From a virus (Duplodnaviria; Caudoviricetes): 64,000 nt of DNA. The stretch lies in the IMG/VR virus record IMGVR_UViG_3300037499_000135, positions 5,056 to 69,055 of that record; one strand, written 5' to 3'. Below are positions 1 to 63,674 of the stretch, piece after piece. The notes beneath the pieces are model-generated. The model was given only the letters and a program-made list of their open reading frames with translations, did not search any database and had not been told where the DNA came from. Made by a program: the position numbers and the translations under genes. How positions within the stretch are numbered: the first letter of the stretch is position 1; each line of letters begins with the position of its first letter.

Positions 1-2410
1 AGTACGGGTGCGCGTCCTCGTGCGGCGGCTGCACACACACACCCTCCTGCCCGATGTGGCAAGACCCCCACTGCGCGGCATGCCCGTAGATCCGGCCGTC
101 ATCCGTGACCGTGATCGGCGTCGGCAGAGACAGCTTCGGATCCGAGAACCACTCCGGCGCCGGACGCCACACCTCACCCGCGGCAACCAGCGCCGCACGC
201 GTCTTGGCCGGGACCGGCTCGACCACCGCGAGCGTACGGACGACGTCCTCACCGACCGGCTGCCCGCCGGCCACCACCGCGCCCTGCTCGTCGAGGAGCG
301 CGATGTACGCCTCGGCGAACGCCGGGATGTCCACCAGTGTCGCTGCCCTGATCCGGCCGCCGTGGAAAATCATCTTCTCCGGCTGCGCGAAGAGCATCTC
401 GAAGAGGTCGCCCTCGTCGCCCTCTTCAGTCCCGGCGTTGACGTCATCAGGCCACACGAACTCGACGTCCGCGTCGGCGATGGAGTCGGCGTCGATGGAT
501 ACGCCGCGGAGGAACTTGCCTTCGATCTTGGCGTGGGCGCGGCGGCCGTTGTCGTCGGACAGGTCGAGGACACCCGAGCCCATGATCTTGCCTTCGTCAC
601 GCCAGACCTTGTCGATGCGGCCGACGTTGACGGCGACGGTATGCGGCTCCCCGCCGTGGGAGTCCTCAATGTTCCACCTGAGTGGTACCGGCAGCTCGGC
701 CCAGTTGAGGGCGCCGGGCGCGAACTCGCGGCCGTCGCCGGTGACGATGCCCTCAACGGCGAGGACGCCTTCCCAGGGGGCGGTCTTGCCTGTGTAGTCC
801 ATGCCCTTGTCGTCGGGCTTGTCCATGTCGTCGTCGTCTTCGGCGTACAGGGCGGCCTGCTGTTCCAGGGCGGCGGCTTCGGTGGCGTGGCAGCCCATGA
901 GTTCGTCGGTCATCTCTTTGACCACGGCCCACGGCGTATCCGCGCCGCAGTCCGGGTGATCCTGCTCGACGCGGTACGGCATCGTGCCCTCCTGGTCGGT
1001 GGTCTGGTGCGGCATTGTGTCCGCGGAAGCCGCCAAGATCATTCCGGCGGCGGCTTGCTCGTCGGGCTGCGGCCAGACGGTGACGAGCGTGCCGCGGCAC
1101 CGCGAGCCGCCGAGGCAGCCCGTGTAGCCGCCGGACGGGTACGCGGTCCGGGCGTCGGGCAGCGTGGTGTAGCGGGTGCCGTCGATGTCCCGACAGGGTT
1201 TACATGACGACCGGTCCAAGATTTCTGTGGCCGTGTACTCGGCTGGCGGCGCGACCGCGAGCACCGCGAGACGGCCCTCGTTCTGCGCGGCACTCATCGC
1301 CGCACCCACCTGCTCCTCAACCGCCGCACCCGACAGCCCTGCGAGGTGCTCGTCGACCTGAACGGCTACCTGCGGCGGCGTACCGGAGCCCCACACGCGC
1401 ATCGCCTGCCGCACCGCGGACTGCACCAGCCCAACACCCAGGTAACGGGCCGTCGTACGGCCGACCTGGCGGAGCCGGTCCCGGATCGCCGCCGCGGTGA
1501 GCGCCTCGTCGTCGAGCGACCATTCGGGGACGGTGACGCCTTGTGCTTCGGCTTCGGCCTGCTGGGCTTCGCCTGCCTCCCGCGCGTAGGCGATCATGCG
1601 GGCGATCAGGAGACGTGAGCCGTCGTCGGTGTCGACGGTGAGTCCGTCGAGGCGGTCGAGGTCGTCGGCTTCGGCTGCGGCTTGGATGCTCGCGGTGACC
1701 TCGGCGCGCATCGCCTCCTGGACGGTGGCCCACGCTTCGACGGTGGTGTCGACGGCTTCGTGCCACGCCTTGTCCATCTGCGCGAAGTCGACGCGGGAGG
1801 CGAGCTCCAGCTCGGTGGGCTGACGGCGCAACGGACCGGCCGCCGCGGTGACGGACTGGCCGAGCGGGATGTCGGTGTGGTCCCCGGCGAACGCCACCCG
1901 GATCCGGTCGAAGGCGACCGGGCCGAGGCGTTCCTCCAACGCGATGATGAGATCCAACTCATCCGAGTACGCGGCACAGATATGCGGTACAAACGGCGAG
2001 TGCTGTATGGGGAGGTCCGGGTGGTTGGGGGTTTCTTCCAGCGCGTACGTCACGTCGTGGCGCACCTCTCCCAGACCGGGGCCGTCCGCGTCGCGGTCGT
2101 CGCCGACGGCCCACACCCACGACGGTGAATCGGTGTTCGCGTTCCAGTGGTTCGCGCCGAACACCCGCGCCGTGATCGGCCCCACAAACTGGGAGGCGGC
2201 GATCGCGCGGACGTTGCCGATCAGCTCGTTGCGCTGTTCCTCGGTCCACGCGGCGCCGTCGTCTCCGAGGAAGTACAGCGTCAGATGCAGATCCTCAGCG
2301 GACTCACCGCCCTCGATCGCCAGCCGCGCAGCGTCCTCCACCGTCGGCATCAGCGCAATCATCGCGCCCGACATGTGCGAACCATCAGCCGCGGCTGTGA
2401 GCGAACCCAT
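1..2410 (-). CDS. Partial (>=803 aa, runs off left edge) head fusion protein: N-terminal 2H phosphoesterase-like domain + MuF-like minor head domain + capsid maturation protease-like region
   Basis: Hand translation from ATG at 2410 (GGAG upstream) is open to position 1. Motifs: DLHLTLYFLG and VPHICAAY (2H pair about 101 aa apart); SCKPCRDIDG...GCLGGSRCRG (MuF-type Cys motif); WEGVLAVEGIVTGDGREF...GRID and WFSDPKL...TDDGRIYGHAAQWGSCHIG (actinophage protease-like). Directly follows portal. Absent from the ORF track because it has no stop in the window. Confidence 0.8.
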   Translation of the reverse strand, partial: MGSLTAAADGSHMSGAMIALMPTVEDAARLAIEGGESAEDLHLTLYFLGDDGAAWTEEQRNELIGNVRAIAASQFVGPITARVFGANHWNANTDSPSWVWAVGDDRDADGPGLGEVRHDVTYALEETPNHPDLPIQHSPFVPHICAAYSDELDLIIALEERLGPVAFDRIRVAFAGDHTDIPLGQSVTAAAGPLRRQPTELELASRVDFAQMDKAWHEAVDTTVEAWATVQEAMRAEVTASIQAAAEADDLDRLDGLTVDTDDGSRLLIARMIAYAREAGEAQQAEAEAQGVTVPEWSLDDEALTAAAIRDRLRQVGRTTARYLGVGLVQSAVRQAMRVWGSGTPPQVAVQVDEHLAGLSGAAVEEQVGAAMSAAQNEGRLAVLAVAPPAEYTATEILDRSSCKPCRDIDGTRYTTLPDARTAYPSGGYTGCLGGSRCRGTLVTVWPQPDEQAAAGMILAASADTMPHQTTDQEGTMPYRVEQDHPDCGADTPWAVVKEMTDELMGCHATEAAALEQQAALYAEDDDDMDKPDDKGMDYTGKTAPWEGVLAVEGIVTGDGREFAPGALNWAELPVPLRWNIEDSHGGEPHTVAVNVGRIDKVWRDEGKIMGSGVLDLSDDNGRRAHAKIEGKFLRGVSIDADSIADADVEFVWPDDVNAGTEEGDEGDLFEMLFAQPEKMIFHGGRIRAATLVDIPAFAEAYIALLDEQGAVVAGGQPVGEDVVRTLAVVEPVPAKTRAALVAAGEVWRPAPEWFSDPKLSLPTPITVTDDGRIYGHAAQWGSCHIGQEGVCVQPPHEDAHPY

Positions 2411-5362: not shown

Positions 5363-5426
5363 GCTCATTTTACCGTGCCTGACCTGGGCATTCCCTGTAA
5401 TTGGCGTACAAATACGGTGAGTTGAT

Positions 5427-6830
5427 TCACCGCCGTAGACGCCCGCCAACAATCTGCTTTCTGGCCAGATCACCACCCAACGAACCCTGGCCAGCGGCCG
5501 TCGTCCGCACCATCTTCAGATGCCATGCGGTCCAAACGGCGCTGTCGACACGGTCCGGCGACCAGCCGATCTCCGGATACCACGTCGACATCTGACCCTC
5601 CAACTCCGGGAACGTCCCCGCGTGATGCCAGCGCCCCTGCGCCGTCAACGCACTCACCGGCTGCGCCCGCACCGCCTTGCCGCGCGTCGCCGTGACCGTA
5701 CGGATCGGAATGTTCACGCCCAACGCCTCAGCCGCAGTGCGCAGCACGGCCACAGCTTGGGCCCCGCCGTAGTTTGTCTCCACCACCAAATCGTCTGCAC
5801 TCCAGTCGATCGCGGCCTGCACCGCCCGCCGGCCCCATCCGTCCGGCGACAGATGGCAGGTGCGGTCGTCGAGGACGTACCCGTGATGCTCCGGCCGCGC
5901 CGGGCCGGGTGGCGGCCCGTCGTCTGGTACCGCGTGCAGCGTCGGCAGGATGAGCCCGGACTTCCCGGCCACGACGATGCCCTGCTCGCCTGCACCACCG
6001 GAGGGGTCTACGCCGACGGTGATGCGCGCAAGGTCCGGTACGTCGTCCGGGCGGACGCGGGCGGCGTCGATCATCTTCCGTGTCCATAGGGCGTTTTCGT
6101 CCTCGTCCATGATGAGGCCGAGGAGTTCCTGCTGGCCGAGCTGGGTGCCGCCGTAGGACTCTTCGAGCGCCTGGCGGATGTGCTCGGGGAGGTGCGGGTT
6201 GTCGTAGGTGGTGGCGGTGGTCAGGACGGTGTTGCTGACCTGCCCGGCCACCAGTTTCTTGATGAGCGGCTTGGGCTTCGGGGTGGTGGAGGCGATCCAG
6301 TGGGGGCGCGGTCCGGAGCGGAGGCCGAATCGCATCTGGTCCCATGCGGCGTCGAGGTGGCGCCACGCCGCCAACTCTTCGGCCCAAATCAGACAAGTAT
6401 TGCCACCTGCACGCAAACGTTCCACATCGCCCGGGGAGTCGGTGCCGAACAGCTTCGCCTGCGAGCCGTTCGTCCACCGCACCACCGAGCCGCCCGGTGC
6501 GGAGATCGGCCCTCTTGCTGAAGGGTCGTGCGCGAGGATCCCTGACGGCCCTTCCACGCAGGCCGTGGCCGCGTCGCCGAGGGTGGGGGCGATGATGCCG
6601 ATCCAGTGCGGCACTGGGCCGGGCAGGCAGGCGGGGCCTTTGACGTGTCGGGCAACGTACTCGGCGCAGGCGTCCGTCTTGCCGGCGCCACGTCCGGCGA
6701 TCATGGCCCAGCCGTAGAAGTTGCCGGGCGGTGGGATTTGGTGCGGGAGCGGCGTCCAGCGGGGTTTGAGTTGGGCGCCGAGGAGGGCGGCGGCGCGTGC
6801 CGCTACTGTTGCCCGGTCGTTGGTGCCCAT
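5427..6830 (-). CDS. terL: Terminase large subunit
   Basis: AGRGAGKT Walker A, IWAEE Walker B-like, ASTTP, GVDPSGG and DRVDS RNase H-like nuclease acidic residues; lies upstream of portal. Confidence 0.92.
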   Translation of the reverse strand: MGTNDRATVAARAAALLGAQLKPRWTPLPHQIPPPGNFYGWAMIAGRGAGKTDACAEYVARHVKGPACLPGPVPHWIGIIAPTLGDAATACVEGPSGILAHDPSARGPISAPGGSVVRWTNGSQAKLFGTDSPGDVERLRAGGNTCLIWAEELAAWRHLDAAWDQMRFGLRSGPRPHWIASTTPKPKPLIKKLVAGQVSNTVLTTATTYDNPHLPEHIRQALEESYGGTQLGQQELLGLIMDEDENALWTRKMIDAARVRPDDVPDLARITVGVDPSGGAGEQGIVVAGKSGLILPTLHAVPDDGPPPGPARPEHHGYVLDDRTCHLSPDGWGRRAVQAAIDWSADDLVVETNYGGAQAVAVLRTAAEALGVNIPIRTVTATRGKAVRAQPVSALTAQGRWHHAGTFPELEGQMSTWYPEIGWSPDRVDSAVWTAWHLKMVRTTAAGQGSLGGDLARKQIVGGRLRR

Positions 6831-6941
6831 GGGCGGATTGTCGGGCGTGCGAGGGCGGTCGGGTTCCGGAGCGGGGTTCTGTCGTTGCCTCGTATGCTGG
6901 CCGTGCGCCAGGGTTTGTACTTATGCCCTCATTGACCCGTG

Positions 6942-6973
6942 GGCGCCCCCGGGAAGAAGCGCAAAGGGGCGCC
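6942..6973. terminator. Hairpin downstream of glycosyltransferase cluster
   Basis: GGCGCCCC(6942-6949) and GGGGCGCC(6966-6973) inverted repeat right after the stop at 6976. Confidence 0.45.
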
Positions 6974-6975
6974 AC

Positions 6976-7551
6976 TCAGCGTTGGCGGGCGTCGCCTCGG
7001 TCGGGGCGGCCGCTGGAGTTCTGTGGTCCGTGGTGCCAGGTCCACGTACGGGCCGGGTGGTGCACGATCTTCGCCCCGGCGACGACGCATCCCTTCGTGA
7101 AGGCGAAGTCCTCACCGAGTCCGTGGAAGCCGATCTGCTGGGCCAGCTCGGTGCGTACGAGGATGGTGATCGTGGTGGAGTGCGGACGCCGGTCGTCCCA
7201 GGGTTTGCCGAAGAACATGGGGAACGGGTCGCGTCCGCCGACCACACGGAACCAGGGGTAGACGTAGTCGGCTTCGGTCTGCTCGGCGCAGGTGAGGAGC
7301 TGCGCGAGGTGGGTGGGGTCCATCTCGTCATCGGAGTCGAGGAACGCGGTCCATTCGGTGGTGACCATGTCGAGGCCGCGTTGGCGGGTGGCGGCGGCGC
7401 CTTCGCGGCGGATGTCTTCGACGGTGATCAGATGCGCGGGGATGGTCTGGCGTGCTACGGAGTCGACGGCCCGCGCGAGCATGCCGTTCTTCACGCGGGC
7501 TGGGTGGTAGGGGACGACGACCGTCACCTGTGGCTCGGTCACCGCAGCCAT
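6976..7551 (-). CDS. GT-A (GT2-like) glycosyltransferase
   Basis: VTVVVPY, GAAATRQRG, FLDSDD (DxD) motifs; start trimmed to ATG 7551. Confidence 0.85.
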   Translation of the reverse strand: MAAVTEPQVTVVVPYHPARVKNGMLARAVDSVARQTIPAHLITVEDIRREGAAATRQRGLDMVTTEWTAFLDSDDEMDPTHLAQLLTCAEQTEADYVYPWFRVVGGRDPFPMFFGKPWDDRRPHSTTITILVRTELAQQIGFHGLGEDFAFTKGCVVAGAKIVHHPARTWTWHHGPQNSSGRPDRGDARQR

Positions 7552-7718
7552 CCCCAGCTCTCCGGTTCCAGGAACGGATCGTCGTCCGCGTTGTCGAGCC
7601 ACGCGTCCAGACAAACCTGGCACAGCACCAAGCGGTTCCCGTTGGCGCTGTTCCAGGAGGCGACTGCCGACGGTCCGCAGCTCGGGAGTCCGCCAAAGCA
7701 GGGGCGCATCACCCTCAT
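7539..7718 (-). CDS. Small Cys-containing hypothetical protein (MRVMRPC...LCQVCLDAWLDNADDD)
   Basis: ATGA coupling with upstream stop at 7715. Confidence 0.55.
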   Translation of the reverse strand: MRVMRPCFGGLPSCGPSAVASWNSANGNRLVLCQVCLDAWLDNADDDPFLEPESWGWLR

Positions 7719-7924
7719 CGTGGCGTGTCCTTCGTCGGGTCGATCAGGTCGGCGGCCCAAGTGACGCCGTTGGTGTACGGGCCGCCGGGGGTGATCGCCG
7801 TGGGCGGCACCGTTGTCCGGATCTTCTCCGCCAGCTCGTGCGCGAACGCGTCGATGAGGGCGTTCTTCTCGGCCAGCCTGTAGTTGTCCCACAGCGCGCC
7901 CATGAGAGCATCACGCGCGCTCAC
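7715..7924 (-). CDS. Hypothetical protein
   Basis: Coupled start and stop with neighbours; protein-like composition. Confidence 0.6.
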   Translation of the reverse strand: MSARDALMGALWDNYRLAEKNALIDAFAHELAEKIRTTVPPTAITPGGPYTNGVTWAADLIDPTKDTPR

Positions 7925-8193
7925 CGCTCCGCCGTCCTTACCGTGCCGAACGGGTTGCCGCAGACGCAGGCCGACAGGTCCAGATCACACCCCGGTGACT
8001 GACACGGCCCGGCCGAGTCCTCCTCGCATCGGTCTTCGACAGCGACTGCGCACGCAGCGTCCGGCCCGACAAGACGGCCGCATTCTGGGGGCCACGGGTG
8101 GAGGTAGTGGTGGCGCACGGAACCATCTGTGGACACATCGATGCCAGGCAATCCTTGTGGCTCGACCTCGAACCACTGGGTATCTTCACTCAC
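7921..8193 (-). CDS. Hypothetical Cys-rich protein
   Basis: GTG start overlaps methyltransferase stop (GTGA). Confidence 0.5.
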   Translation of the reverse strand: MSEDTQWFEVEPQGLPGIDVSTDGSVRHHYLHPWPPECGRLVGPDAACAVAVEDRCEEDSAGPCQSPGCDLDLSACVCGNPFGTVRTAER

Positions 8194-8630
8194 CGTGGCG
8201 TCCCCTTCCACAGGATTTCGTTGTCGCCCTGAATGCGGAGCTCCAGAGTCTTCCACGGCCGGAGTCCGTAATCAGCGTGGGCGGCTTTCGTCCCGTCGAT
8301 GTAGTGGAAGCTCTCGACGCACCAGAAGGAGACGTGCGTGGGATCGGCGAACGCGTGCCAGGTTCCGGACAGGGCGTTGGGTACGCGGATCTCGAACACG
8401 CCGCCGGGGTGGAGGACGCGGTGGGCTTCGTTCATCACCGCGATCCGATCAGCCCCGGCGGGGATGTGTTCCATGACGTGGGAGGCGCGTATGGCCTCGA
8501 TGGTGTGGTCGCCGGTGGGCCATGGCGTGTCCTGTGCGAGGCGCTGCCACGCGCCAGTGCCGTGCTGCGGGTCGAGGTTGATCCAGCCGCGTTGGGCGAG
8601 TTTCCCGCCGCCGATCTCGATGCTGGGCAT
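8190..8630 (-). CDS. Class I SAM-dependent methyltransferase (Methyltransf_11-like, glycan-cluster type)
   Basis: IEIGGG motif I, WINLD, SHVMEHI, RVLHPGG, DPTH; ATG at 8630 overlaps upstream stop. Confidence 0.82.
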   Translation of the reverse strand: MPSIEIGGGKLAQRGWINLDPQHGTGAWQRLAQDTPWPTGDHTIEAIRASHVMEHIPAGADRIAVMNEAHRVLHPGGVFEIRVPNALSGTWHAFADPTHVSFWCVESFHYIDGTKAAHADYGLRPWKTLELRIQGDNEILWKGTPR

Positions 8631-8923
8631 CACATACGCTCCGGCCAGTGCCACGTGCCGCCGCGCCGCTCGCCCGGAGGGAGTGAGCAACTGCCGCCGG
8701 GCGCCTCGTACTGGAAGCACCCGCCATCGGCCAGCGAGTGGAAGAACAGGCCGGTCGGGTTCTGCACGCAGAGCCCGACTTGCAGCGGCTCCTCGTCGTT
8801 GACCTCTGTGACGGTGGCCGCGCGGCACTTGGCAACGTACGCCTGCGTGCCGTCCTCCCGGATCGGAGTGCCGAAAGATACGTAATGCACCACTCGACCA
8901 ACGCTCGGTGCTTGTTCGCTCAT
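8630..8923 (-). CDS. Actinophage-type hypothetical protein (PSVGRVVHYVS...CRAATVTEV...NPTG)
   Basis: 97 aa, translationally coupled on both sides. Confidence 0.7.
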   Translation of the reverse strand: MSEQAPSVGRVVHYVSFGTPIREDGTQAYVAKCRAATVTEVNDEEPLQVGLCVQNPTGLFFHSLADGGCFQYEAPGGSCSLPPGERRGGTWHWPERM

Positions 8924-9576
8924 CAGTGCCGTCCGCTTCCCTCGTACTTCAGCCACGCGTTCGCCAGATGCGTACCCGGCAGGCTGGTGGGCTTCAGCTT
9001 CGCCGTCCGCAGCACGTACGGCTGCGACACCTGATCCCGCGCCGAACCGCCCGCCACCTCCTTGGCCCACGCCGCACCCATCCGCCGCACCGCCGCCGTA
9101 TGCCGACGGGCGATCACACCCGACGCCCACAACCCCCAACCCACCGGATGCCCCGCCTCCCTGTACCGGGCCGTCTGCCACCCCGCCACACCCTCCGGAT
9201 CTTTGCCGAGCGCGGCGATCTCCACCGCCTCCGCGAACAGGCAGTCCCGCCACGGATGCACGAACTGCGCGATCGGCTTCGCCAAGGCCAGCGCCTCGGC
9301 CGCGAAGTCCGGGGAGACGACACGAAACGAAGCATCGATCCAGATGCTGGCGGGCGCGTCCGTGTACTTCCACGGCTCGAACTTCGCCGCCTTCGCCGCA
9401 CGATTCGGCGGCACATCCGGACGCGGCTCATGCACGACGCGCCACCCCATGGCGTCTGCGGGCTGCGTGTCGGTGACGAACACCCACTCCACCTCCACAC
9501 CAGCCTGCGCCAACACCGGCTTCACCGTGTCGTAGGCGTCATAACACGCGGTCACAATCGCGACATCAGCGGGCAT
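8923..9576 (-). CDS. DUF616/TOD1-MUCI70-like glycosyltransferase
   Basis: VTACYDAYD, FVTD, AKAAKFEP, IWIDAS, HPWRDCLFAEA, RDQVSQPY motifs. Confidence 0.75.
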   Translation of the reverse strand: MPADVAIVTACYDAYDTVKPVLAQAGVEVEWVFVTDTQPADAMGWRVVHEPRPDVPPNRAAKAAKFEPWKYTDAPASIWIDASFRVVSPDFAAEALALAKPIAQFVHPWRDCLFAEAVEIAALGKDPEGVAGWQTARYREAGHPVGWGLWASGVIARRHTAAVRRMGAAWAKEVAGGSARDQVSQPYVLRTAKLKPTSLPGTHLANAWLKYEGSGRH

Positions 9577-10381
9577 CGCGGTACCACCTCACCGTCTCAG
9601 CAACCCGATCCCACGAGAATTCGGGCTTCCAGTCCAACCGGTCCCAGCCCTCACCATTCGCCGTGATCTGCACGGGTACTTCACCCGCACGCATCGGCAG
9701 ATACTCGATACCCGCCTTCGACCCAGTCTCCTTCAGCACGAACTCCGCCAACTGGTTCACGGTCACCGCAGTACCGGTGCCGGCGTCGAACGTCTCGTCA
9801 TCCCCATATCCGGTGGCTTCGACGAGCATCCGGCCCACATCGTCGGCCTGGACGAGGTCCATGGCCTGAGTGCCGTCACCCCAGATGGGCAGGGGCCGGT
9901 TCTCCCATGCTGCGCGGGCGAAGGTGGGGAGGATCTTCTGCGGGTGGCCGGGCCCGTAGTGCTGGTACGGGCCGTAGCCGTTGAAGGCGCGGACGGTGGA
10001 CACGGGCAGCCCATATGCGTGATGCCACGCTGTTGTGAGCCTGCGGGCGGCGACCTTCGTCGCGGTGTACACCGACGGGAACGGGTCCGGCATCGACACC
10101 CCGACATAGCGGGCGCCACGATCCTGGCACCACTCCAGGATACGGAGCGTACCGATGACGTTGACCTGGATGGCCGTCTCCGGCATGTCGAACAGTTCGC
10201 TGGTGCCGAGGACTCCGGCGAGGTGTATGACGGTGTCGGCGTCGCCGAGCGCGTCCAACGAGCCGAGAATGTCGAGACCTTGGGTGCGGTCGAACGCCCA
10301 CACCTCATGCCCCGCCTGCTCGGCGGCTTCGATGGTGGCGCGGCCGAAGAACCCGGCACCACCGGTTACTGCAATCTTCAA
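9566..10381 (-). CDS. NAD-dependent sugar epimerase/dehydratase (extended SDR)
   Basis: TGGAGFFG Rossmann motif, YTATK (YxxxK), FNGYGP, GDGTQ..D; TTG start at 10381 with AAGGAG SD. Confidence 0.9.
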   Translation of the reverse strand: MKIAVTGGAGFFGRATIEAAEQAGHEVWAFDRTQGLDILGSLDALGDADTVIHLAGVLGTSELFDMPETAIQVNVIGTLRILEWCQDRGARYVGVSMPDPFPSVYTATKVAARRLTTAWHHAYGLPVSTVRAFNGYGPYQHYGPGHPQKILPTFARAAWENRPLPIWGDGTQAMDLVQADDVGRMLVEATGYGDDETFDAGTGTAVTVNQLAEFVLKETGSKAGIEYLPMRAGEVPVQITANGEGWDRLDWKPEFSWDRVAETVRWYRDAR

Positions 10382-10398
10382 CGGTTTCTCCTTGCTGC

Positions 10399-11076
10399 TC
10401 ACCACGGAGTGCGGCCCCACTTCGCCTTGAAGGTCTCGCGGTCACGGCCCGCCTGCGTCTTGAGCTCCGGCCGTTCGTACATCGAGCCGTTGGGACAGCG
10501 GTGCTCGACGGCCAGGCCGGGGACGAGGAGGGCGCCGCCGCGCTCACGGGCGGTCCAGTCGAGGCTGTCGTCGCCGTACCACCACGCAAGGTCCTCGTCG
10601 AGGCGCAGCCCGGTCTCGCCGCGCAGCAGGTACGCGTAGCCCGTGATCCGCGTCCGCAGGTCCACCGGTTCGGCCTTCGTGTGGAGGATCTGGCGCCGTC
10701 CGCCGTGCTGGTCGGGGTAGGCGAGGACCGCGGGCCCGGCCCGCATGGCCGTCGACAGACCTTCGATCCAGCCGGGCGGCACGGTCACATCACTGTTGAG
10801 GACGGCGATGTCCCACCGGTCGGCTTCGTGCTGGTGGGCTTGTGCGTCGGCGAGGGCGAGCCCGACGTTCCACAGCGTCGAGATGTTCGGCGGGTCGATC
10901 GGCAGTGACACCACACCGACCTTGCCGTGCCACGGCTCGGGGTCGATCGGCGGCGACGACAGGTTGTCGATGACGATGACCCGGTCGACCTGGTCGACGA
11001 TCGAGTTGATGCAGTCCGCGAGCATGTCGTGCCGATCCCGCGTCGGGATGACGGCAGCCTGGAAGAGGTCACCCAT
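10399..11076 (-). CDS. GT-A (GT2-like) glycosyltransferase
   Basis: AVIPTRDR, IVIDN, LNSDV, WYGDD motifs. Confidence 0.8.
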   Translation of the reverse strand: MGDLFQAAVIPTRDRHDMLADCINSIVDQVDRVIVIDNLSSPPIDPEPWHGKVGVVSLPIDPPNISTLWNVGLALADAQAHQHEADRWDIAVLNSDVTVPPGWIEGLSTAMRAGPAVLAYPDQHGGRRQILHTKAEPVDLRTRITGYAYLLRGETGLRLDEDLAWWYGDDSLDWTARERGGALLVPGLAVEHRCPNGSMYERPELKTQAGRDRETFKAKWGRTPW

Positions 11077-11293
11077 CAGAAGGCTCCTGGAGGGCCGTAC
11101 GCAGGACATCCCCGATCTCCAGTAGCGCCTGAGCTACTGCGATGGTGGCAAGCGCCTGCGCCTGAGCAGCGTTGACCTTCGCGTCCTCGACCAGCGGCCG
11201 CTCCGGCAGCGCGTTCAGGACCTCCGCGGCTTGGTCGAGGGTGCGCCCGGCCATCTGTCGGTAGGGCGACGGGCGCGCCTCGGGGGCGCTCAC
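11069..11293 (-). CDS. Small hypothetical protein
   Basis: GTG at 11293 overlaps dehydratase stop (alternative ATG 11254); AQAQALATIAVAQALL helix. Confidence 0.6.
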   Translation of the reverse strand: MSAPEARPSPYRQMAGRTLDQAAEVLNALPERPLVEDAKVNAAQAQALATIAVAQALLEIGDVLRTALQEPSDG

Positions 11294-12318
11294 GCGGTGA
11301 GCCACTGCGGGTTGTCCGCGTACCACTTCACGATGTCCGCGAGGGTCTCGTCGAGTGGGCGTGGTCCGGGCCAGCCAAGCTCGGCGAGCTTCGACCCGTC
11401 GAGCGCGTATCGGTGGTCGTGGCCTGGGCGCTGCCCGTGATAGTCCACCAGCTCGAAGTTGAGGGTGCGGCCGGCCGCCGCTGCCATGCGCTGCGCAACG
11501 TCGAGGTTCGTCGCCTCCTCGCCGACGATGTTGTAGCGCAGGGGGCCGGTCGGCATCGTCGGGTAGTACGTCAGCCGCTCGTCGCCATCGAAGTGCCGGG
11601 TGAGCCACAGCCACGCTGCGGCGAAGTCGCGGGCGTCGACCCAGCAGCGCGACCCGGAGACACCGTCGGGGGAAGCGTGGACGGTGAGCGTCTCGCCGGG
11701 ACCGCCGTAGATGGCGCGGGCGATCTTCGGAATGAACTTCTCCGACGCTTGAGGCGCGGGTGCGAGGAGGTTCATCGTGTTCGTCACGATCAAAGGCACG
11801 CCCAGCGCGCGCCAGTAGCTGTAGGCGATTGCCTCCTGCGCCGCCTTCGACGCGGCGTACGGGTTGGAGGGGCGGATGCTGTCCCACTCGTGGTGCCGGT
11901 AGTTCTCGGCGGCGGGCCCGAACACTTCGTCGGTCGACATCTGCAGGAACAGCCGCGGCTTCGCCAGGCGGGCGTACTCCAGCATGTTCAGCTGGAGTTC
12001 GACGTTGTTCCGCACGAACGGCACCGGGTCCGTGAGGGAGCGGTCGACGTGGGACTCGGAGGCGATGTTCCACACGTAGTCGACGGGCCCGATCTGCTCG
12101 GCGAGGACCGGCGTGATCGGCAACGCCAAGTCGTGGGCGATGACGTCCACCCGCGCGCGGGCATCAGGCTGTGCGTCGAGGACGGCGTTGATGCGGGCCC
12201 CGTCGCCGTGGTGCCGGTACGACACCGGACACGTCACGTGCCAGTCCGTGTTGGCGAGCACATGCGCGAGGACAGTCGACCCGACGAACCCGGACGCCCC
12301 GGTGAGCAGCAGTCTCAT
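11290..12318 (-). CDS. rmlB: dTDP-glucose 4,6-dehydratase (RmlB-like)
   Basis: TGASGFVG, ASESHVDRS, STDEVFG, PSNPYAASKA, EKFIP, RPGHDHRYA: the RmlB signature set. Confidence 0.88.
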   Translation of the reverse strand: MRLLLTGASGFVGSTVLAHVLANTDWHVTCPVSYRHHGDGARINAVLDAQPDARARVDVIAHDLALPITPVLAEQIGPVDYVWNIASESHVDRSLTDPVPFVRNNVELQLNMLEYARLAKPRLFLQMSTDEVFGPAAENYRHHEWDSIRPSNPYAASKAAQEAIAYSYWRALGVPLIVTNTMNLLAPAPQASEKFIPKIARAIYGGPGETLTVHASPDGVSGSRCWVDARDFAAAWLWLTRHFDGDERLTYYPTMPTGPLRYNIVGEEATNLDVAQRMAAAAGRTLNFELVDYHGQRPGHDHRYALDGSKLAELGWPGPRPLDETLADIVKWYADNPQWLTA

Positions 12319-12365
12319 GCGCGGCAGGATGCCAGCGGATCCGTGATGGTCATTCCGGGGTGGGG

Positions 12366-12923
12366 TCAGGCCCCGGCAGCAGCCTCGCCGGCACCGAGGA
12401 GATGCTGCTGCGCGGCGCCGAGCGCCGCCACCCGCTGATCGTGGCTGAGCTCCAGCGAGTCCAACGCGGCACCGAGCGCGGTAGCGACAAGCTCACCTTC
12501 GAGGTCCAGGCGTCGTTCCAAGGCCACCATCACTCCAGCGTCTACAGCCTGTTTCGCGGTGGTGGCGGCGAGTTTGCGTTCCTCGCGGGACTGCCGCAGC
12601 CACGGCAGCATCCCGTCTGGCGGCTTCAGCGGATCCCCGCCAGCCTCGACGTGCTCGCGCATGGCGTTCACGATGACGGTGTCGGTCCATGCCGCGCGCG
12701 CGGCTGCCGTGCGTACAAGGCCGAGCAGCGCCTCATGCGGGGTGACGTTCCGTTCTGCTGCGATTTCTTGTGCCATGGCCCATGCCTCCTCGACGTGCTT
12801 CTGTCCGCCGCGATGCCAGATGCAGGTTCCGTACCCGGGGTGCGTGGTTCCTTGTCCGGCGGGTTTGTCGCACATGCGGCCGTTGAGGTTGCGGGCGGGG
12901 CAGCGCGCCGGGTAGGCGGTCAT
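12366..12923 (-). CDS. Probable terminase small subunit
   Basis: N-terminal C..C.KPAG.GT.H.G.G.C.WH.G zinc/HGG-type motif plus helical body; first gene of the packaging operon. Confidence 0.6.
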   Translation of the reverse strand: MTAYPARCPARNLNGRMCDKPAGQGTTHPGYGTCIWHRGGQKHVEEAWAMAQEIAAERNVTPHEALLGLVRTAAARAAWTDTVIVNAMREHVEAGGDPLKPPDGMLPWLRQSREERKLAATTAKQAVDAGVMVALERRLDLEGELVATALGAALDSLELSHDQRVAALGAAQQHLLGAGEAAAGA

Positions 12924-12965
12924 GGGGTGATTGTGGCGCGGCGCACGCCCGTGATCTTCCGGCGG

Positions 12966-13157
12966 CTACTTCTCGATGTCGTCCACGATGATTCCGATGG
13001 TGGGATTTTCGGGATGTTCGAGATTCCACTCGACGTCGATCACACGTCCCTTGCCATCCCCATCGATGATCGTGTCACCGACCCGAGGGACTGCGGGCAG
13101 ATGTACCTCGTACTGACCGTCTCGCCAGAACACCACTACTTTGACAAGGTTTCCCAC
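12966..13157 (-). CDS. Hypothetical protein
   Basis: 63 aa, GGAG SD upstream, PAVPRVGDTI segment. Confidence 0.6.
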   Translation of the reverse strand: MGNLVKVVVFWRDGQYEVHLPAVPRVGDTIIDGDGKGRVIDVEWNLEHPENPTIGIIVDDIEK

Positions 13158-15508: not shown

Positions 15509-15703
15509 ATGGTCACCGAAGCCGAACTCAAAGCCCTCGACGAGCATTACAAGGACGCGATCAAGGCAGCCGAACGCCAGCGCGCCACCACCATCGCCCG
15601 CGCCATCGACAGCGGATGGGCACAGAAGGACGTCATTGCCGCCACCGGCTACAGCCGCGAGACCATCCGGCGTCTCACCGGAGAAGGGCGGGCGGCCCAG
15701 TGA
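15509..15703 (+). CDS. Small HTH protein (probable leaderless repressor)
   Basis: WAQKDVIAATGYSRETIRRL HTH-like segment. Confidence 0.75.
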   Translation: MVTEAELKALDEHYKDAIKAAERQRATTIARAIDSGWAQKDVIAATGYSRETIRRLTGEGRAAQ

Positions 15704-16248
15704 CTGCGCTCGCTACGCCCAACCCGAAGGTCGCCGGCTACGAGACAGCCCTCTACATCGCGTGGGGAGCCAACGAGACGCCGCTCTACATCGGCACAAC
15801 GAACAACCCCAAGACGCGCTGGCGACAGCACGCAAAGGACAAAGCGTGGTGGCCCGACGTCGAGTACCTCGACTACCGGTGGTTCCCGAACGGCACCGAA
15901 GCCGAGAAGGCCGAGCAACTCCTGATCAGCCAGCACTGTCCGATCTACAACCGCGCAATGCCGCCCTGGTACTGCGGGCTGCCGCCGGAAGGGCGCCGCG
16001 CGTGGCGTGAATGGTTCGACGGCAGGGCCAAGCTGGTATTCGAGATGCTGGAAAAGGGCGGCGACTTGGAAGCCGCTGCCGAGGCTGCCGAGTGGCACCC
16101 GCGCTACATCGTCCGATTGGGTAGGCAGCGCCATGCCCCATGGGCGATGGACTATCGAGGCAGGTATGACGACCTGCCCGCGGAGGGCTACCTGCCATTC
16201 CGACCTCGGCCGGTGCGCCCGACGACCGGCGAGGAGACCAGCGGATGA
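15700..16248 (+). CDS. GIY-YIG nuclease-fold protein
   Basis: ALYIAW...PLYIGTT...RWRQH...EQLLI...PIYN; GTGA coupling to HTH gene. Confidence 0.75.
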   Translation: MTALATPNPKVAGYETALYIAWGANETPLYIGTTNNPKTRWRQHAKDKAWWPDVEYLDYRWFPNGTEAEKAEQLLISQHCPIYNRAMPPWYCGLPPEGRRAWREWFDGRAKLVFEMLEKGGDLEAAAEAAEWHPRYIVRLGRQRHAPWAMDYRGRYDDLPAEGYLPFRPRPVRPTTGEETSG

Positions 16249-21619: not shown

Positions 21620-21886
21620 ATGGACGACCGGGCGGAGGAGGTGCGGCGCATGCTCGATGCGGTGGATGCCGTAGCGGCTGAAGAGCCACCCACTGAACAA
21701 GCCAAGCGGATCACGCAGGCGTGGGGCGAGGCTGTTGATCGCTTCCGGTGGCGGCGCCAACAGGCGGTGCGCCGAATGCACGAGAGCGGCATGACCTACC
21801 GGCAGATCGCCGACGAGTTGAGCATCAGCTTCGGACGCGTCAGCCAGATCCTCGCCGAAGAACTCGAACCACCGTCTGACGAATGA
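21620..21886 (+). CDS. Small HTH protein (sigma70_r4-like HTH)
   Basis: GMTYRQIADELSISFGRVSQIL; GGAAGGA SD. Confidence 0.8.
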   Translation: MDDRAEEVRRMLDAVDAVAAEEPPTEQAKRITQAWGEAVDRFRWRRQQAVRRMHESGMTYRQIADELSISFGRVSQILAEELEPPSDE

Positions 21887-21957
21887 GAGACGGCCGAGCG
21901 GTGTCGAGACCGCCCGGCCGTGAAGCAGCCCGACCCAAGCAAGAGAAAGGCGCTCCC

Positions 21958-22569
21958 ATGAGCGTAACGGAGATGGTCCCGATCAGCGTGCTACCGGCAC
22001 CGGAGACGAGCGGCCGTTCCGCCGTCTATCGGATCTTCGGTGACGAGCAGCGGTTGCTGTACATCGGCAGCTCGGAGCGGCCCCGGCAGCGCTGGCACGA
22101 GCACAGGAACCGCACTGCATGGTGGGCGGAGGCGCGGGCTTACTCGCTAACGTGGCTGCCCACTCGGGAGGCCGCGTATGAAGCCGAGCAGTTGGCCATC
22201 GCAGCCGAACTCCCAGTCTTCAACCAGGTATGGCAGCCCCAGCAGATCCCGGCGCCCCGCAAGGAGTCGGAGCCGGTAGAGGAGGTGCGGCGCGTGGCGG
22301 ATGCCCTTGACGCAGTCGAACAGATTGCCGACGAGGAGCAGCGCGTGAAGGCCAAGAGCCGGATCATGGCTGACCAGGTCGAGCGCAATAAGGCGTGGGC
22401 GCAAGAGCGGACGCGACTGATCCGGCGCCTGCACCACGACGAGAAGCTCTCGTACCGGCAGATCGCCGCGCGCCTTGAAATCAAGCTCAGCGCGGTACAG
22501 GACGCCTTCCGGAACTACACGGAGACGGGCGAGTACCGGGGAAAGACGGCTCGGGGCGGCGAGGAGTAG
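21958..22569 (+). CDS. GIY-YIG domain + C-terminal HTH fusion
   Basis: AVYRIF...LLYIGSS...RWHEH...EQLAI...PVFN; then LSYRQIAARLEIKLSAVQDA; AAAGG SD before ATG 21958. Confidence 0.78.
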   Translation: MSVTEMVPISVLPAPETSGRSAVYRIFGDEQRLLYIGSSERPRQRWHEHRNRTAWWAEARAYSLTWLPTREAAYEAEQLAIAAELPVFNQVWQPQQIPAPRKESEPVEEVRRVADALDAVEQIADEEQRVKAKSRIMADQVERNKAWAQERTRLIRRLHHDEKLSYRQIAARLEIKLSAVQDAFRNYTETGEYRGKTARGGEE

Positions 22570-47224: not shown

Positions 47225-47779
47225 ATGCAGAAAATCCCGACCCTCTTCGTCCGCAACCCCGACGACCGCCGCCACGTCCTGCCCGAGGTCACCCCGGGCT
47301 GCGAGTGGGTCCTCGCTGGGGAAGGACTCGCGACCCGCAAGTGGGACGGCACCTGCACCAAGCTCGACGAGGACGACGTGTGGTGGGCGAGGCGCGAGGT
47401 CAAGCCCGGCAAGACGCCGCCACCCGACTACGTCCCGATCGGCACCGACGAGGTCACTGGGAAGACGGTGGGGTGGGAACCGATCGAGCAGTCCTCGTTC
47501 GCGAAGTACCACACTGAGGCGCTCACCCACACGGGGCTGATGGTGCCCAGCACGTACGAACTCTGCGGCCCGAAGATCAACGGCAACCCGGAAATGCTCA
47601 GCCGCCACACTCTCATCCTCCACGGCTTTGCACCGTCGTCCGAGACCGACGACATCAAGGCCGCGCCACGCGACTACGAAGGCCTGCGTGACTGGCTGCG
47701 GGATCGCCACTACGAAGGGCTCGTCTGGCATCACGCCGATGGACGGGTGGCGAAGCTGAAGGCGAAGGACTTCCGCTAG
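47225..47779 (+). CDS. RNA ligase-like nucleotidyltransferase (DUF5565/Rnl1-like)
   Basis: MQKIPTLF, ATRKWDGT (KxDG adenylation motif), TYELCGPKINGNPE, EGLVW, AKLK. Confidence 0.75.
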   Translation: MQKIPTLFVRNPDDRRHVLPEVTPGCEWVLAGEGLATRKWDGTCTKLDEDDVWWARREVKPGKTPPPDYVPIGTDEVTGKTVGWEPIEQSSFAKYHTEALTHTGLMVPSTYELCGPKINGNPEMLSRHTLILHGFAPSSETDDIKAAPRDYEGLRDWLRDRHYEGLVWHHADGRVAKLKAKDFR

Positions 47780-48822
47780 ACCGCGACCGCCGTGCGCGGC
47801 GTAGCCTGCTGCACCTCGTACGCCCTCTGCCAGGCATCCTGCCACCGCCACGCATGCTGCGACAGCCGGAGCTGCTCGGCCACCGCACGCCCCGCCTCAG
47901 ACAACTCCGCCCGCAGCTCGGCCGACTCGCGGAGCCGCTTCAACTCGCGGTACCAGACCCGCGGCCGGTCAGCGAGCACGCCCGCGCCCATCGCGTGCAG
48001 CCGCGCGTACTCCGCCCGCGGCGACGCCACCCACGGCACCCCGCAGGCTGAGAGCTCCAAAGGCTTCAAGTACGACTTAGCTTGGTTGAACTTCGTGTCG
48101 GCAAGCGGGGCGATCCCGATCCCCAACTCGGCGACCGCGCGCGGCCATTCCTCGATCGGCACCCCACCGCCGGGCGGATCCCCTGCCAGACCGAACGCCC
48201 TGCCAGCGCCCGTCGGATCGCCGCGCATCACAAACGACGCGCCCTCGTCCACCAGCCGCGCGACCGCCCCGCCCACCACATCCGGATCGTTCGGATGCGA
48301 GTGGAACGAACCGGGCCAACCGATCGTGTCCGAGTCCGTACGCGGCAGCCCGTAGTACATGTCCGGCAGGTAGTTCGGCAGCACATGCCCGCGGCCGTGC
48401 CTCGCGTACACGTCCAACAGCGCCGGCGTCGACACCGTCACCAACGACGCGTTCCGGCACGCCAACGCAAGGTTGTGCCACGAATGCAGCCCCGCGCCCG
48501 GACGATGCACAGCCCACGCCGGATTCGACGGATGAATCGACGACAGATCATCGTCGACATCCACCACCACCGTGATGCCCTTCGCCCGCATCACGCCGAC
48601 AGCCTGCGCCATGTAGGCGTGGGTGACGCGCTGCATGACGACGACATCGGCATCGACGAGTACGTCTTTGACGGTGTGGCCGTCCATGACGACGCGGACG
48701 CGGCGGTCGTTGGGGCCGACGACCTCGACGTCGTGGCCAGATGCGGCGAGGAACTGGCCACTCCAGATGATGCGGAAGTGGCCGCACCCGTATTGGTCGC
48801 TGGGGTAGGCGACGACCTTCAC
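47776..48822 (-). CDS. GT-B fold glycosyltransferase
   Basis: GCGHFR, VMQR, DVDDDL, VTVST, IGWPGS, IAPL..FNQAKS.LK.LE..ACGVP.VAS. Confidence 0.85.
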   Translation of the reverse strand: MKVVAYPSDQYGCGHFRIIWSGQFLAASGHDVEVVGPNDRRVRVVMDGHTVKDVLVDADVVVMQRVTHAYMAQAVGVMRAKGITVVVDVDDDLSSIHPSNPAWAVHRPGAGLHSWHNLALACRNASLVTVSTPALLDVYARHGRGHVLPNYLPDMYYGLPRTDSDTIGWPGSFHSHPNDPDVVGGAVARLVDEGASFVMRGDPTGAGRAFGLAGDPPGGGVPIEEWPRAVAELGIGIAPLADTKFNQAKSYLKPLELSACGVPWVASPRAEYARLHAMGAGVLADRPRVWYRELKRLRESAELRAELSEAGRAVAEQLRLSQHAWRWQDAWQRAYEVQQATPRTAVAV

Positions 48823-53039: not shown

Positions 53040-54812
53040 CTATGCGGGTTCGACGATCATCCAGGCGACCACCGATGTGTCGGTGCCGCTGGAGCTGAGG
53101 ATGGTGAACGACGTTCCAGCGGTGCGCGTTGAGACGCGCAGGAAGCCGGGGGTTCCTCCGGGCGTCTGGCAGGTGAGGAAGATCCTGCTGTTGGCCGTAA
53201 CTGCCGTGGTGGCGACGGCCAGCGTGCCGCCGACCAGGGTGGCGACACCCATCTTCGCGTTGGCCCCTTCGGCGACCTGAAGGCCGCGGCCCGCGGTGAC
53301 GATCCGCAGATCGGCAGTCGACAGGTCGAGCCGGTTCGCCGCTCCCCGTCCGATCTTCACGTCGCGTGCCGCGTTGCCGGGGCCGAACTCGATGTCGCCG
53401 TTGGCGAATACCTGGATGCGGCGGGTCGAGTCTCCGGCGACGAGCGCGGCGAGCACGGCGGACACGGTGGTGGCGGCGGTCATACGCAGGTGGGGGTTGG
53501 TGTTGCCTGCCCCGTTGGTGTTGACCAGGTCCAGGGCGCTGGCGTCGGTGGCGGTGGTGTTGGTTGCGGTGCCGCGCCATGCCCACGGTTCGGTGCTGGC
53601 CCGGGTGGGTGCGGCGGTCGTCCCGGTGGCGGTGCCGGTGTTCGGGCCGCGCAGCAAAACAGTGTTGGTGCCTGCGTCGTGGAATGCGGTGGTCGCGGCG
53701 TGCAGGTAGGAGTCGGCGACGAGAGCCCAGGTGCAGCCGCCGAACGAGACCGCGCGCTCCGGCGAGTTGGTTCCCAGTCCGTCGTCGCCGACGCCGGGGT
53801 AGCAGGTCATGCCGGTGACGATGATCGGGGTGGTGGCGTTGGTGCCGCGCAGTGCGGCGAAGCCGCCGCCTCCGGCACCGGGGAAGCCGTTGCGGCCGTC
53901 TCTCCTGGCCATCAGTCCTGCCACAACGATCGGCGCGTTGCCGGTGGAGTCGATTAGCACCCCGTACTGGGAGTTGCGGTCGGTGGAGCAGCCGGACAGG
54001 ATGGCGCCGCCGGAGCCCTGGCCGGTGCCCCACGAGCCGGTGATGTAAAACCCGGACAGTGCAGACCACTCGGCGCGGCAGACGTCGAGTTGGGTGTTGG
54101 GTGCTCCGCTGATGTAGTAGCCGTGGCCGCGTACACCGATGGTGCGGCAGTTCACCAGGTGGTGGTCTGTGCCGATGAGGTGGAAGCCGTCCCAGGTGGT
54201 GTCGGCGACGTCTTTGCCGTTGATTTGGACGTTGTCGAAGTACCAGCTGTAGGGGTCGCCGTCGGCGCCGCCGTTGACGAGGACGATCGAGTGGTCTGTC
54301 ATCTTGGCGATGCCGACGTCACGCAGGACGGTGCCGTGGACGAAGCCGGTGCCGCGGATGCCGGAGACGGTCTCCGTCGTTAGATTCACGCCGTCGATGT
54401 TCACGCCGGTGATGTGGACGTCGCGGGTTTCGGTGGGATAGCCGGCGACGTCGGCGTCGAGGAGGTCGATGACCGTGGCGTCGGAGAATCCTGCCAGTGG
54501 GACGAGCGCCGGGTAGTCGTCTGCCGAGACGGCGTCGCGGTCCACGATGGGGCCTGCCAGCCGTATGTAGGGCGGGATGGTCAGCTTCGAGGCGAGGCCG
54601 TAGCGTTTCGCCCCCAGGTAGACCACGGCGCCCGGTGGTGCGGCGTCCAGGAGTCCTTGGATGACGGTCTTGTCGTCGGTGACGCCGTCGCCTGCTGCGC
54701 CGCTGCCTTCTACGGGGATGGCGAGTGAGGTGATCTGGTTTTGCAGGTCTGTCAGTGCTGTGTTGAGGACGGGTCCCCATCCGGTTTGCCCGATCGTGGG
54801 CACGGTGACCAT
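53040..54812 (-). CDS. Tailspike / right-handed beta-helix depolymerase-like protein
   Basis: PTIGQTGWG head, GAAGDGVTDDKTVIQ (pectate_lyase_3-like start), repeated beta-helix strands, GVATLVGGT tail. Confidence 0.8.
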   Translation of the reverse strand: MVTVPTIGQTGWGPVLNTALTDLQNQITSLAIPVEGSGAAGDGVTDDKTVIQGLLDAAPPGAVVYLGAKRYGLASKLTIPPYIRLAGPIVDRDAVSADDYPALVPLAGFSDATVIDLLDADVAGYPTETRDVHITGVNIDGVNLTTETVSGIRGTGFVHGTVLRDVGIAKMTDHSIVLVNGGADGDPYSWYFDNVQINGKDVADTTWDGFHLIGTDHHLVNCRTIGVRGHGYYISGAPNTQLDVCRAEWSALSGFYITGSWGTGQGSGGAILSGCSTDRNSQYGVLIDSTGNAPIVVAGLMARRDGRNGFPGAGGGGFAALRGTNATTPIIVTGMTCYPGVGDDGLGTNSPERAVSFGGCTWALVADSYLHAATTAFHDAGTNTVLLRGPNTGTATGTTAAPTRASTEPWAWRGTATNTTATDASALDLVNTNGAGNTNPHLRMTAATTVSAVLAALVAGDSTRRIQVFANGDIEFGPGNAARDVKIGRGAANRLDLSTADLRIVTAGRGLQVAEGANAKMGVATLVGGTLAVATTAVTANSRIFLTCQTPGGTPGFLRVSTRTAGTSFTILSSSGTDTSVVAWMIVEPA

Positions 54813-63663: not shown

Positions 63664-63674
63664 CCCCCTTCACA

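Follow-up and report, generated by a model that had tools for sequence, protein, structure and literature searches.

Glycosylation of virion proteins by phage-encoded enzymes has been shown so far for a few mycobacteriophages, in which it is discussed as a shield against antibodies. The capsid and tail-tube subunits of Che8, Corndog and Myrna are reported to be glycosylated by transferases of the phages themselves (Freeman et al. 2023, as cited in PMC12363180 and PMC11256854), and the mycobacteriophage glycans sit at the C-termini of these subunits (PMC12619734). We describe here a cassette of sugar enzymes at 6976-12318, on the minus strand, of a 64,000-nucleotide (nt) stretch of viral DNA (hereafter the window; bases 5056-69055 of a 69,055-bp IMG/VR virus record) that belongs to a temperate Streptomyces siphophage. 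Intact catalytic motifs and strong conservation indicate that the block is a functional glycosylation cassette. The reading that we favour, and to which we give about an even chance, is that it glycosylates virion proteins in the cytoplasm as a variant of the Che8-type system. In both cases an actinobacteriophage carries its own soluble transferases, and the proposed acceptors are cytoplasmic capsid and tail-tube subunits. The present cassette differs in adding an RmlB-like enzyme, a second short-chain dehydrogenase/reductase (SDR) and a DUF616-type transferase, and in its place between a putative small terminase gene (terS) and the large terminase gene (terL); its relatives add an RmlA-like enzyme or a uridine diphosphate (UDP)-glucose dehydrogenase. 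The Che8-type glycans have been demonstrated; those of the present cassette are predicted.

Genes were called from frame plots of GC content at third codon positions (GC3) and from three-frame translations, and families were assigned by Pfam, NCBIfam and PHROG scans. The interval resolves into eleven minus-strand genes, six of them for enzymes and five of them small open reading frames (ORFs) without enzyme domains. All six enzyme types named in the original prediction are present; the five interleaved small ORFs and the true gene starts had not been described there. The enzyme genes are the following.

11290-12318, minus strand: SDR1, an RmlB-like nucleoside diphosphate (NDP)-hexose 4,6-dehydratase of 342 amino acids (Pfam Epimerase 128 bits, GDP_Man_Dehyd 122 bits)
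10399-11109, minus strand: GT2A, a family-2 glycosyltransferase (GT2) of 236 amino acids (PF00535 32.3 bits against a cut-off of 23.3)
9566-10420, minus strand: SDR2, a compact extended-SDR nucleotide-sugar epimerase, reductase or dehydratase of 284 amino acids (Pfam Epimerase 120 bits; YxxxK invariant)
8923-9576, minus strand: a DUF616/TOD1-MUCI70-like putative glycosyltransferase of 217 amino acids (PF04765 19.6 bits; phrog_26101 glycosyltransferase 7.5e-12)
8190-8630, minus strand: a small class I S-adenosylmethionine-dependent methyltransferase of 146 amino acids (Methyltransf_11 23.8 bits against 21.2; Methyltransf_23 27.0; phrog_6636 methyltransferase)
6976-7551, minus strand: GT2B, a family-2 glycosyltransferase of 191 amino acids with a DSDD motif (PF00535 46.6 bits against 23.3; phrog_14775 2.5e-43); its ORF is listed as 6976-7623, and the real start is at 7551

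The overlapping stops and starts that had been reported for these genes are confirmed, with overlaps of 1-22 nt at most junctions, and a gap of 145 nt separates the stop of GT2B from terL. The six enzymes and the small ORFs form one tightly coupled, probably co-transcribed operon at the head of the late structural operon. A scan of the cassette found no sigma-70-like promoter and no minus-strand terminator, which is weak evidence, as the promoter scan used the sigma-70 consensus only and Streptomyces phage promoters may not fit it. All of the cassette proteins look soluble: the highest 19-residue Kyte-Doolittle mean in any of them is 1.61, at the Rossmann strand of an SDR, so none looks membrane-bound. 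Neither a membrane-like segment nor a flippase, polymerase or priming transferase was found among them, and the set that marks Gtr-type modules for O-antigen or wall modification in lysogenic conversion (a membrane flippase with a polyprenol-linked or integral-membrane transferase) is absent from these proteins. Frameshifted pseudogenes were considered as the source of the frame changes at 7475-8200 and 8600-8900 and were rejected; these are separate small ORFs with their own starts, several of which have homologues in relatives.

The alignment of SDR1 with solved RmlB enzymes spans the whole protein. Its ten best solved relatives are all deoxythymidine diphosphate (dTDP)-glucose 4,6-dehydratases (E 2e-32). 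It carries TGASGFVGS, STDE and YAASK, and the corresponding motifs GxxGxxG, Thr-Asp-Glu and YxxxK are invariant in 15 homologues. The best NCBIfam match is TIGR01181 (dTDP-glucose 4,6-dehydratase), at 170 bits against an equivalog cut-off of 365.1. The cassette departs from the RmlA-RmlB-RmlC-RmlD pathway to dTDP-L-rhamnose in that the window holds no RmlC cupin, no protein with an RmlD-like top match and no RmlA. The nearest solved relatives of SDR2, with the single sequence and with the family profile alike, are a mix of Pal (6bwl), GalE-type epimerases, RmlB and MoeE5. SDR2 was considered as the 4-ketoreductase partner of SDR1, and this assignment was rejected, since a profile of 13 homologues compared with the PDB did not separate reductase from epimerase. 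SDR2 is retained in relatives that have no SDR1 (L017; the loci compared carry L numbers).

The cluster had been called self-contained, with the phage supplying its own nucleotide sugar. This did not hold. A PF00483 search of the full 69-kb record found no sugar nucleotidyltransferase, and a search for a degraded one in 11109-11290 found no remnant, so the phage appears not to be self-sufficient in nucleotide sugar. In three relatives (L007, L011 and L021) an RmlA-like gene (best NCBIfam match rmlA, 171 bits) adjoins the SDR1 homologue, which supports the dTDP-glucose route; L034-L036 have an RmlA-like gene with no SDR1 detected. The RmlA-like protein and SDR1 each score less than half of their equivalog cut-offs.

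The transferases and the methyltransferase are strongly conserved. GT2A has 62 invariant residues in 16 homologues, its VIDN and NSD motifs among them, and the DSDD motif of GT2B is invariant in 18. In the methyltransferase, motif I (IEIGGG) and 75 of the 146 residues are invariant in 17 homologues. The DUF616-like protein falls just under the PF04765 gathering threshold (19.6 against 21.4 bits), and 79 of its 217 residues are invariant. It has 572 metagenome homologues, many with a precomputed PF04765 assignment (those 58-85% identical carry it), and a Streptomyces sp. 549 protein 77% identical to it is named DUF616 by NCBI. Its AlphaFold2 (AF2) model, from a 15-sequence alignment, had a pLDDT of 38 and was not used. 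At L101:5965-7283 the core cassette holds a tandem pair of DUF616-like paralogues that share 50% and 54% identity with the window protein. A fourth transferase, which probably belongs to the same glycosylation capacity, lies 35 kb from the cassette, at the end of the lysis cassette and after the endolysin.

47776-48822, minus strand: a GT-B/GT1-like glycosyltransferase of 348 amino acids (phrog_7162 glycosyltransferase 1.5e-31; Glyco_trans_1_2 22.7 bits, below the cut-off)

Profile searches and synteny had been proposed as checks on the cluster, and both bear it out: the families were matched, and since the same gene order recurs in dozens of independent viral contigs and one Streptomyces prophage, the cassette is not a chance arrangement. 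First scans of viral contigs with single-sequence terL and GT2B queries yielded 19 loci; among bacterial genomes a scan turned up one prophage, in Streptomyces sp. 549 (L025). The core GT2A-SDR2-DUF616-methyltransferase-GT2B stands directly upstream of terL in 16 of these first-scan loci. A less biased scan with a terL profile gave 80 loci (55-97% terL identity), of which 62 were informative, with at least 5 kb upstream. The gap before terL held the core cassette in 18 of the 62; three GT2 genes, an SDR, a 189-residue protein and a UDP-glucose dehydrogenase in 6; an SDR1-like gene as the only sugar gene, with a helix-turn-helix (HTH) regulator-like gene and an Rpf-like transglycosylase, in 20; a gene of the family phrog_645 adjoining terL, with no sugar gene, in 7; and nothing detected with the queries used in 11. 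The core order was also found in 5 shorter loci and in the Streptomyces sp. 549 prophage. The SDR1 alleles fall into two classes, one with about 90% and the other with about 55% identity to the copy in the window. Other variants of the cassette have a second GT2B paralogue, a second methyltransferase, tandem DUF616 genes or a prolyl 4-hydroxylase (P4H)-type 2-oxoglutarate-Fe(II) oxygenase. Because varied cassettes occupy the same slot across relatives, the position upstream of terL appears to be a modular glycan hot-spot. The loci with SDR1 alone are L054:5267-9693 and L053, L059, L061, L062, L064, L069, L073, L075, L079, L081-L083, L093-L096 and L106-L108; in these the HTH gene is sigma/LuxR-like, the Rpf-like transglycosylase is secreted, and the gap has no glycosyltransferase.

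Homologues also occur beside terL in sequenced isolates. In KimJongPhill and Zuko (Zukovirus) gp4, gp109 and gp107 share 55-60% identity with SDR1, GT2A and GT2B (55%, 60% and 59% in KimJongPhill), and a phrog_645 gene and terL come shortly after gp4-6. The rest of these genomes is unrelated to the phage described here, which indicates that the cassette genes belong to a mobile pool. The Zukovirus sugar genes differ in being split into two clusters at opposite ends of the genome (gp4-6 and gp107-110); their methyltransferases are not detectably homologous, SDR2 and the DUF616-like protein have no homologue there, whereas gp110 is a P4H-type oxygenase. The transferase at 47776-48822 is 31% identical to KimJongPhill gp6, which stands beside gp4 and terL. 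The P4H-type oxygenase (PF13640) accompanies the GT2A homologue at L018:2462-3115 and in KimJongPhill (gp110, L004:11889-12533), the two copies being 62% identical in unrelated phage backgrounds; it is absent from the window.

Two genes bound the cassette.

5427-6830, minus strand: terL, the large terminase, downstream boundary of the cassette (Terminase_6N 71.8 bits, Terminase_6C 23.7 bits)
12366-12923, minus strand: a conserved protein of 185 amino acids, a putative small terminase by position (phrog_3678; Cys/His knuckle and long helices)

The cassette does lie directly upstream of terL and in the same direction, as originally described; the label "terS-like" given to 12366-12923 is positional, no terminase signature having been found in the protein. 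It has an N-terminal knuckle with invariant C8, C18, H28, C34 and H37, followed by long helices, and its gene stands upstream of the cassette in 11 relatives. It had no match in Pfam or NCBIfam and none to a PHROG terS family, a tblastn search of 50,697 phage records returned nothing, and its AF2 model (pLDDT 77) had no Foldseek match in BFVD or the PDB. The nearest named clusters in the Atlas belong to terS families, but with scores of just 0.83 and 0.77, a weak lead. The 185-residue gene is never immediately upstream of terL in the loci compared; the cassette is always between them. An HTH protein of a second and unrelated family, phrog_645, called "RNase E" in PHROGs and GenBank (L012:2400-2987; L054:5267-5911; KimJongPhill gp7, L003:3827-4375), seems a better candidate for a small terminase than for an RNase. 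Its gene is next to terL in the 7 cassette-free relatives and precedes the cassette in L012, L038 and L025. This marks the cassette as inserted between terL and a conserved gene associated with packaging, which would be terS. The nearest isolate terL is that of Streptomyces phage OnionKnight, at 43% identity. In a number of relatives (L013, L022, L020, L051, L052, L094-L097 and L105-L108) the match to terL either comes as two pieces separated by about 1 kb or begins only at residue 144, which suggests an intein or a homing-endonuclease insertion in terL of several of them.

On the reading we favour, and as family membership suggests, SDR1 would convert a host NDP-glucose, most likely dTDP-glucose (phage-made in some relatives), into an NDP-4-keto-6-deoxyhexose. 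Less firmly, SDR2 might reduce or epimerise this keto intermediate to a 6-deoxyhexose, or epimerise a second host UDP-sugar. The soluble, GT-A-type GT2A, DUF616-like and GT2B transferases, again by their families, would join sugars into a short hetero-oligosaccharide in the cytoplasm, a task in which the GT-B enzyme would probably take part, and the small methyltransferase, likewise by its family, would O-methylate or cap a sugar. The acceptor, a weaker step, would most likely be Ser or Thr of virion proteins during their synthesis, a candidate site being the conserved Thr-rich C-terminal tail (WNVTTTAPPT.ACDPTTLAA) of a predicted tail-tube-like protein. That protein (record 1018-1695, minus strand, left of the window) is a 225-residue homologue of phrog_792 "major tail protein" encoded between head and connector genes, an unusual order. 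The modularity of the cassette would place different glycans on different phages of the lineage. The P4H-type oxygenase that travels with the GT2A homologue in L018 and KimJongPhill fits a protein acceptor and hints at hydroxylated amino-acid sites. We infer late expression of the cassette, and the homologues beside terL in KimJongPhill, which has no integrase annotated among its 118 features, argue against a role specific to lysogeny. The parallel to actinophage virion glycosylation in the original prediction stands as an analogy, and the Che8 transferase genes likewise adjoin packaging genes: gp108-110, at 56.2-58.7 kb of the 59.5-kb genome, do so on the circular map.

Several observations weigh against this reading. 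The virion-protein acceptor is itself suggested by analogy, and the transferases resemble Che8 gp108 only at the level of GT2: in blastp gp108 matched GT2B at E 0.002 and the GT2 of a relative (L009) at E 2e-18, and Che8 gp109 and gp110 had no match to the cassette proteins at E 0.01, so that a shared fold family is likely, and not orthology. The Thr-rich tail is also present in relatives with a different cassette, and the only cassette-free relative is truncated at that point; being kept whatever the cassette, the tail does not discriminate the acceptor. SDR1 scores so far under the RmlB equivalog cut-off that its nucleotide specificity is not established, and neither its nucleotide nor its sugar is certain. 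The nearest solved relatives of SDR2 leave it a candidate for more than one specificity. The phage is temperate, with a serine integrase and an HTH repressor-like gene in the record, and the cassette may accordingly be expressed in the lysogen.

That last point also bears on a different target, a host envelope glycopolymer (teichoic or teichulosonic acid, another wall polysaccharide or a glycoprotein receptor) modified at the cytoplasmic face, which we consider unlikely. TarP is a precedent, as a prophage-encoded GT2 enzyme that acts on staphylococcal wall teichoic acid. The effect would be superinfection exclusion or the shielding of progeny from re-adsorption, and we doubt it to the same degree. 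Temperate growth fits such a role, soluble GT2 enzymes are able to act on lipid-linked wall precursors, diversifying cassettes at a single locus recall surface-antigen loci, and the tailspike, in which a pectate-lyase fold is combined with a C-terminal K1-lyase domain, suggests that the receptor is a polysaccharide. The cassette, however, is embedded in the operon of late packaging and structural genes, no separate promoter or terminator was detected for it, it contains no membrane protein, flippase or priming transferase, and its homologues are found in KimJongPhill, with no annotated integrase. Moreover, the DUF616-like gene was found in 1 of 401 sampled Streptomyces species genomes, and this single copy is the one in the prophage; it therefore does not belong to a pathway common among the hosts. 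The enzymes might instead act on a host protein or small molecule, for example by glycosylating and so inactivating an anti-phage metabolite of Streptomyces, or might divert host nucleotide-sugar pools, which seems to us very improbable. The 20 of 62 relatives that keep the SDR1-like dehydratase alone in the slot, beside the HTH regulator-like and Rpf-like genes, suggest that the dehydratase may have a value apart from local transferases. Against this, GT2 genes lie elsewhere in 4 of the 4 complete records of this type that were searched, so the dehydratase does not act without transferases there. Three or four transferases and a methyltransferase also exceed what drug inactivation needs, and the known macrolide-inactivating transferases belong to GT1, not GT2.

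T-even phages, among others, have glycosylated hydroxymethyl-pyrimidines in their DNA, and the cassette could in principle glycosylate phage DNA bases in the same way and so evade restriction. The hypermodification of DNA with diverse glycans by virus-encoded glycosyltransferases is documented (Pyle et al. 2024, as cited in PMC12619734), the cassette adjoins packaging genes, and KimJongPhill has two thymidylate-synthase homologues, a dCMP deaminase and a dUTPase. The record described here, in contrast, has no gene of the thymidylate-synthase/hydroxymethylase family (PF00303) and no P4H-type oxygenase. Pfam searches of the 20 largest remaining ORFs found no hydroxymethylase or dioxygenase for base modification, and hence no known chemical handle on the bases; a TET/JBP (PF12851) search of the record also gave no match, which is uninformative, as the family was matched in 0 of 14 control genomes. 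The combination of several transferases, a methyltransferase and a deoxysugar enzyme fits the assembly of an oligosaccharide better than the transfer of a single sugar to DNA, and we regard DNA as a most improbable target.

The variety of the slot allows a further, tentative proposal, that in this lineage of soil Streptomyces phages, which is widespread and uncultivated, the gap between the terS-type gene and terL is a glycotype-switching locus, in which swappable cassettes give particles different surface glycans much as O-antigen or capsule loci give serotypes. The cassette types observed comprise a deoxyhexose module of Rml type, which in some phages includes an RmlA, and a UDP-glucose-dehydrogenase or uronic-acid module. 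Extra GT2 or methyltransferase genes also occur and, in some phages, a prolyl-hydroxylase-like oxygenase that would create hydroxy-amino-acid acceptor sites. Host defence or adsorption ecology, and not animal immunity, would be a conceivable driver, which we offer with similar reserve.

The record itself is labelled "linear, 77% complete". Its ends (1-746 of the record and 63256-64000 of the window) share a 746-nt overlap at 92.5% identity. By this overlap the map is effectively circular and the late genes are continuous on the minus strand, and the record is probably a wrap-around assembly of a circularly permuted genome of about 68.3 kb from two strain variants. When the ends are joined, the late genes run terL, portal, head polyprotein, major head protein, connector, tail and lysis, all on the minus strand. 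A Streptomyces host, as had been supposed, is supported by the prophage relative in Streptomyces sp. 549 and by a WhiB gene in the record. A megablast search with 5400-13000 against the 50,697 phage records gave no match and thus no close isolate. Other features of the record, and the small ORFs of the cassette, are these.

62479-63663: a fibre-like gene, with a truncated near-copy at the left end of the record
53040-54812, minus strand: a tail protein of 590 amino acids with a pectate-lyase/beta-helix fold and a K1-capsule-lyase C-terminal domain, likely a polysaccharide-depolymerising tailspike that implies a host glycan receptor
15616-16248 and 21883-22569, plus strand: GIY-YIG endonuclease-like genes, one with HTH_23, opposed to the surrounding minus-strand genes and probably homing endonucleases
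11069-11254, minus strand: a small ORF of 61 amino acids (GC3 peak in frame; its slot holds the RmlA-like gene in relatives)
8630-8923, minus strand: a small protein of 97 amino acids, a semi-conserved passenger (phrog_2293 1.8e-19)
7921-8193, minus strand: a Cys-rich variable accessory ORF of 90 amino acids (GTGA overlap with the methyltransferase stop)
7715-7903, minus strand: a variable accessory ORF of 62 amino acids (strong GC3 signal, 0.86-0.92)
7539-7718, minus strand: a Cys-containing variable accessory ORF of 59 amino acids (ATGA overlap with the upstream ORF)

A copy of the 61-residue ORF, at 83% identity, is carried by the prophage of Streptomyces sp. 549. The 97-residue gene overlaps both the DUF616-like and the methyltransferase genes by one base, and its product occurs in the same slot in many relatives at 38-62% identity and is absent from others. 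A 42% identical copy of the 90-residue ORF is present in L012 and L038 only, and copies of the 62-residue ORF are in L010, L012, L014 and L034-L037. The 90- and 59-residue ORFs had no family match, and the 62-residue ORF had no PHROG match.

Outside the actinophages, the closest parallels in enzyme content come from giant viruses and from plants. Mimivirus makes rhamnose with a 4,6-dehydratase and one bifunctional SDR alone (R141/L780; PMC4691112), and in A064R of PBCV-1 rhamnosyltransferases are coupled to a sugar O-methyltransferase for capsid glycans (PMC7826918). Common to these viruses and the present cassette are a viral 4,6-dehydratase, one more SDR, transferases and a methyltransferase that acts, or here would act, on a sugar; the giant-virus enzymes build glycans of capsids or fibrils in the cytoplasm, and the enzymes described here are proposed to build virion glycans there too. 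The giant viruses infect eukaryotes, however, their enzymes are not closely related to those described here, and their activities have been demonstrated biochemically, whereas ours are predicted. The plant enzyme MUCI70/RGGAT1, the sole characterised transferase of PF04765, adds galacturonic acid to a rhamnose-containing acceptor (PMC10576798). Close homologues of the protein at 8923-9576 match this family, and the protein itself comes just under the cut-off, which provides a lead for function. The window protein covers only the C-terminal half of the 314-position model and is a third shorter.

Compared with what is known of virion glycosylation in mycobacteriophages, the present cassette is far richer, in that it makes or remodels sugar donors. 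Many soil Streptomyces phages keep it at one and the same position, and chemically different cassettes replace the core in relatives. If the virion is the target, glycan coats would be a common and evolving trait of environmental phages, under a selection unrelated to animal immunity. Such cassettes would, in addition, supply soluble transferases for deoxysugars, uronic acids and methyl-sugars. Experimentally accessible systems are available in the isolates KimJongPhill and Zuko and in the prophage of Streptomyces sp. 549. Phage glycosyltransferases and nucleotide-sugar epimerases are already widely annotated, and homologues beside terL are known in sequenced isolates; what is new relative to the known systems is that an actinophage's self-encoded glycosylation includes the remodelling of sugar nucleotides and is organised as a modular hot-spot.

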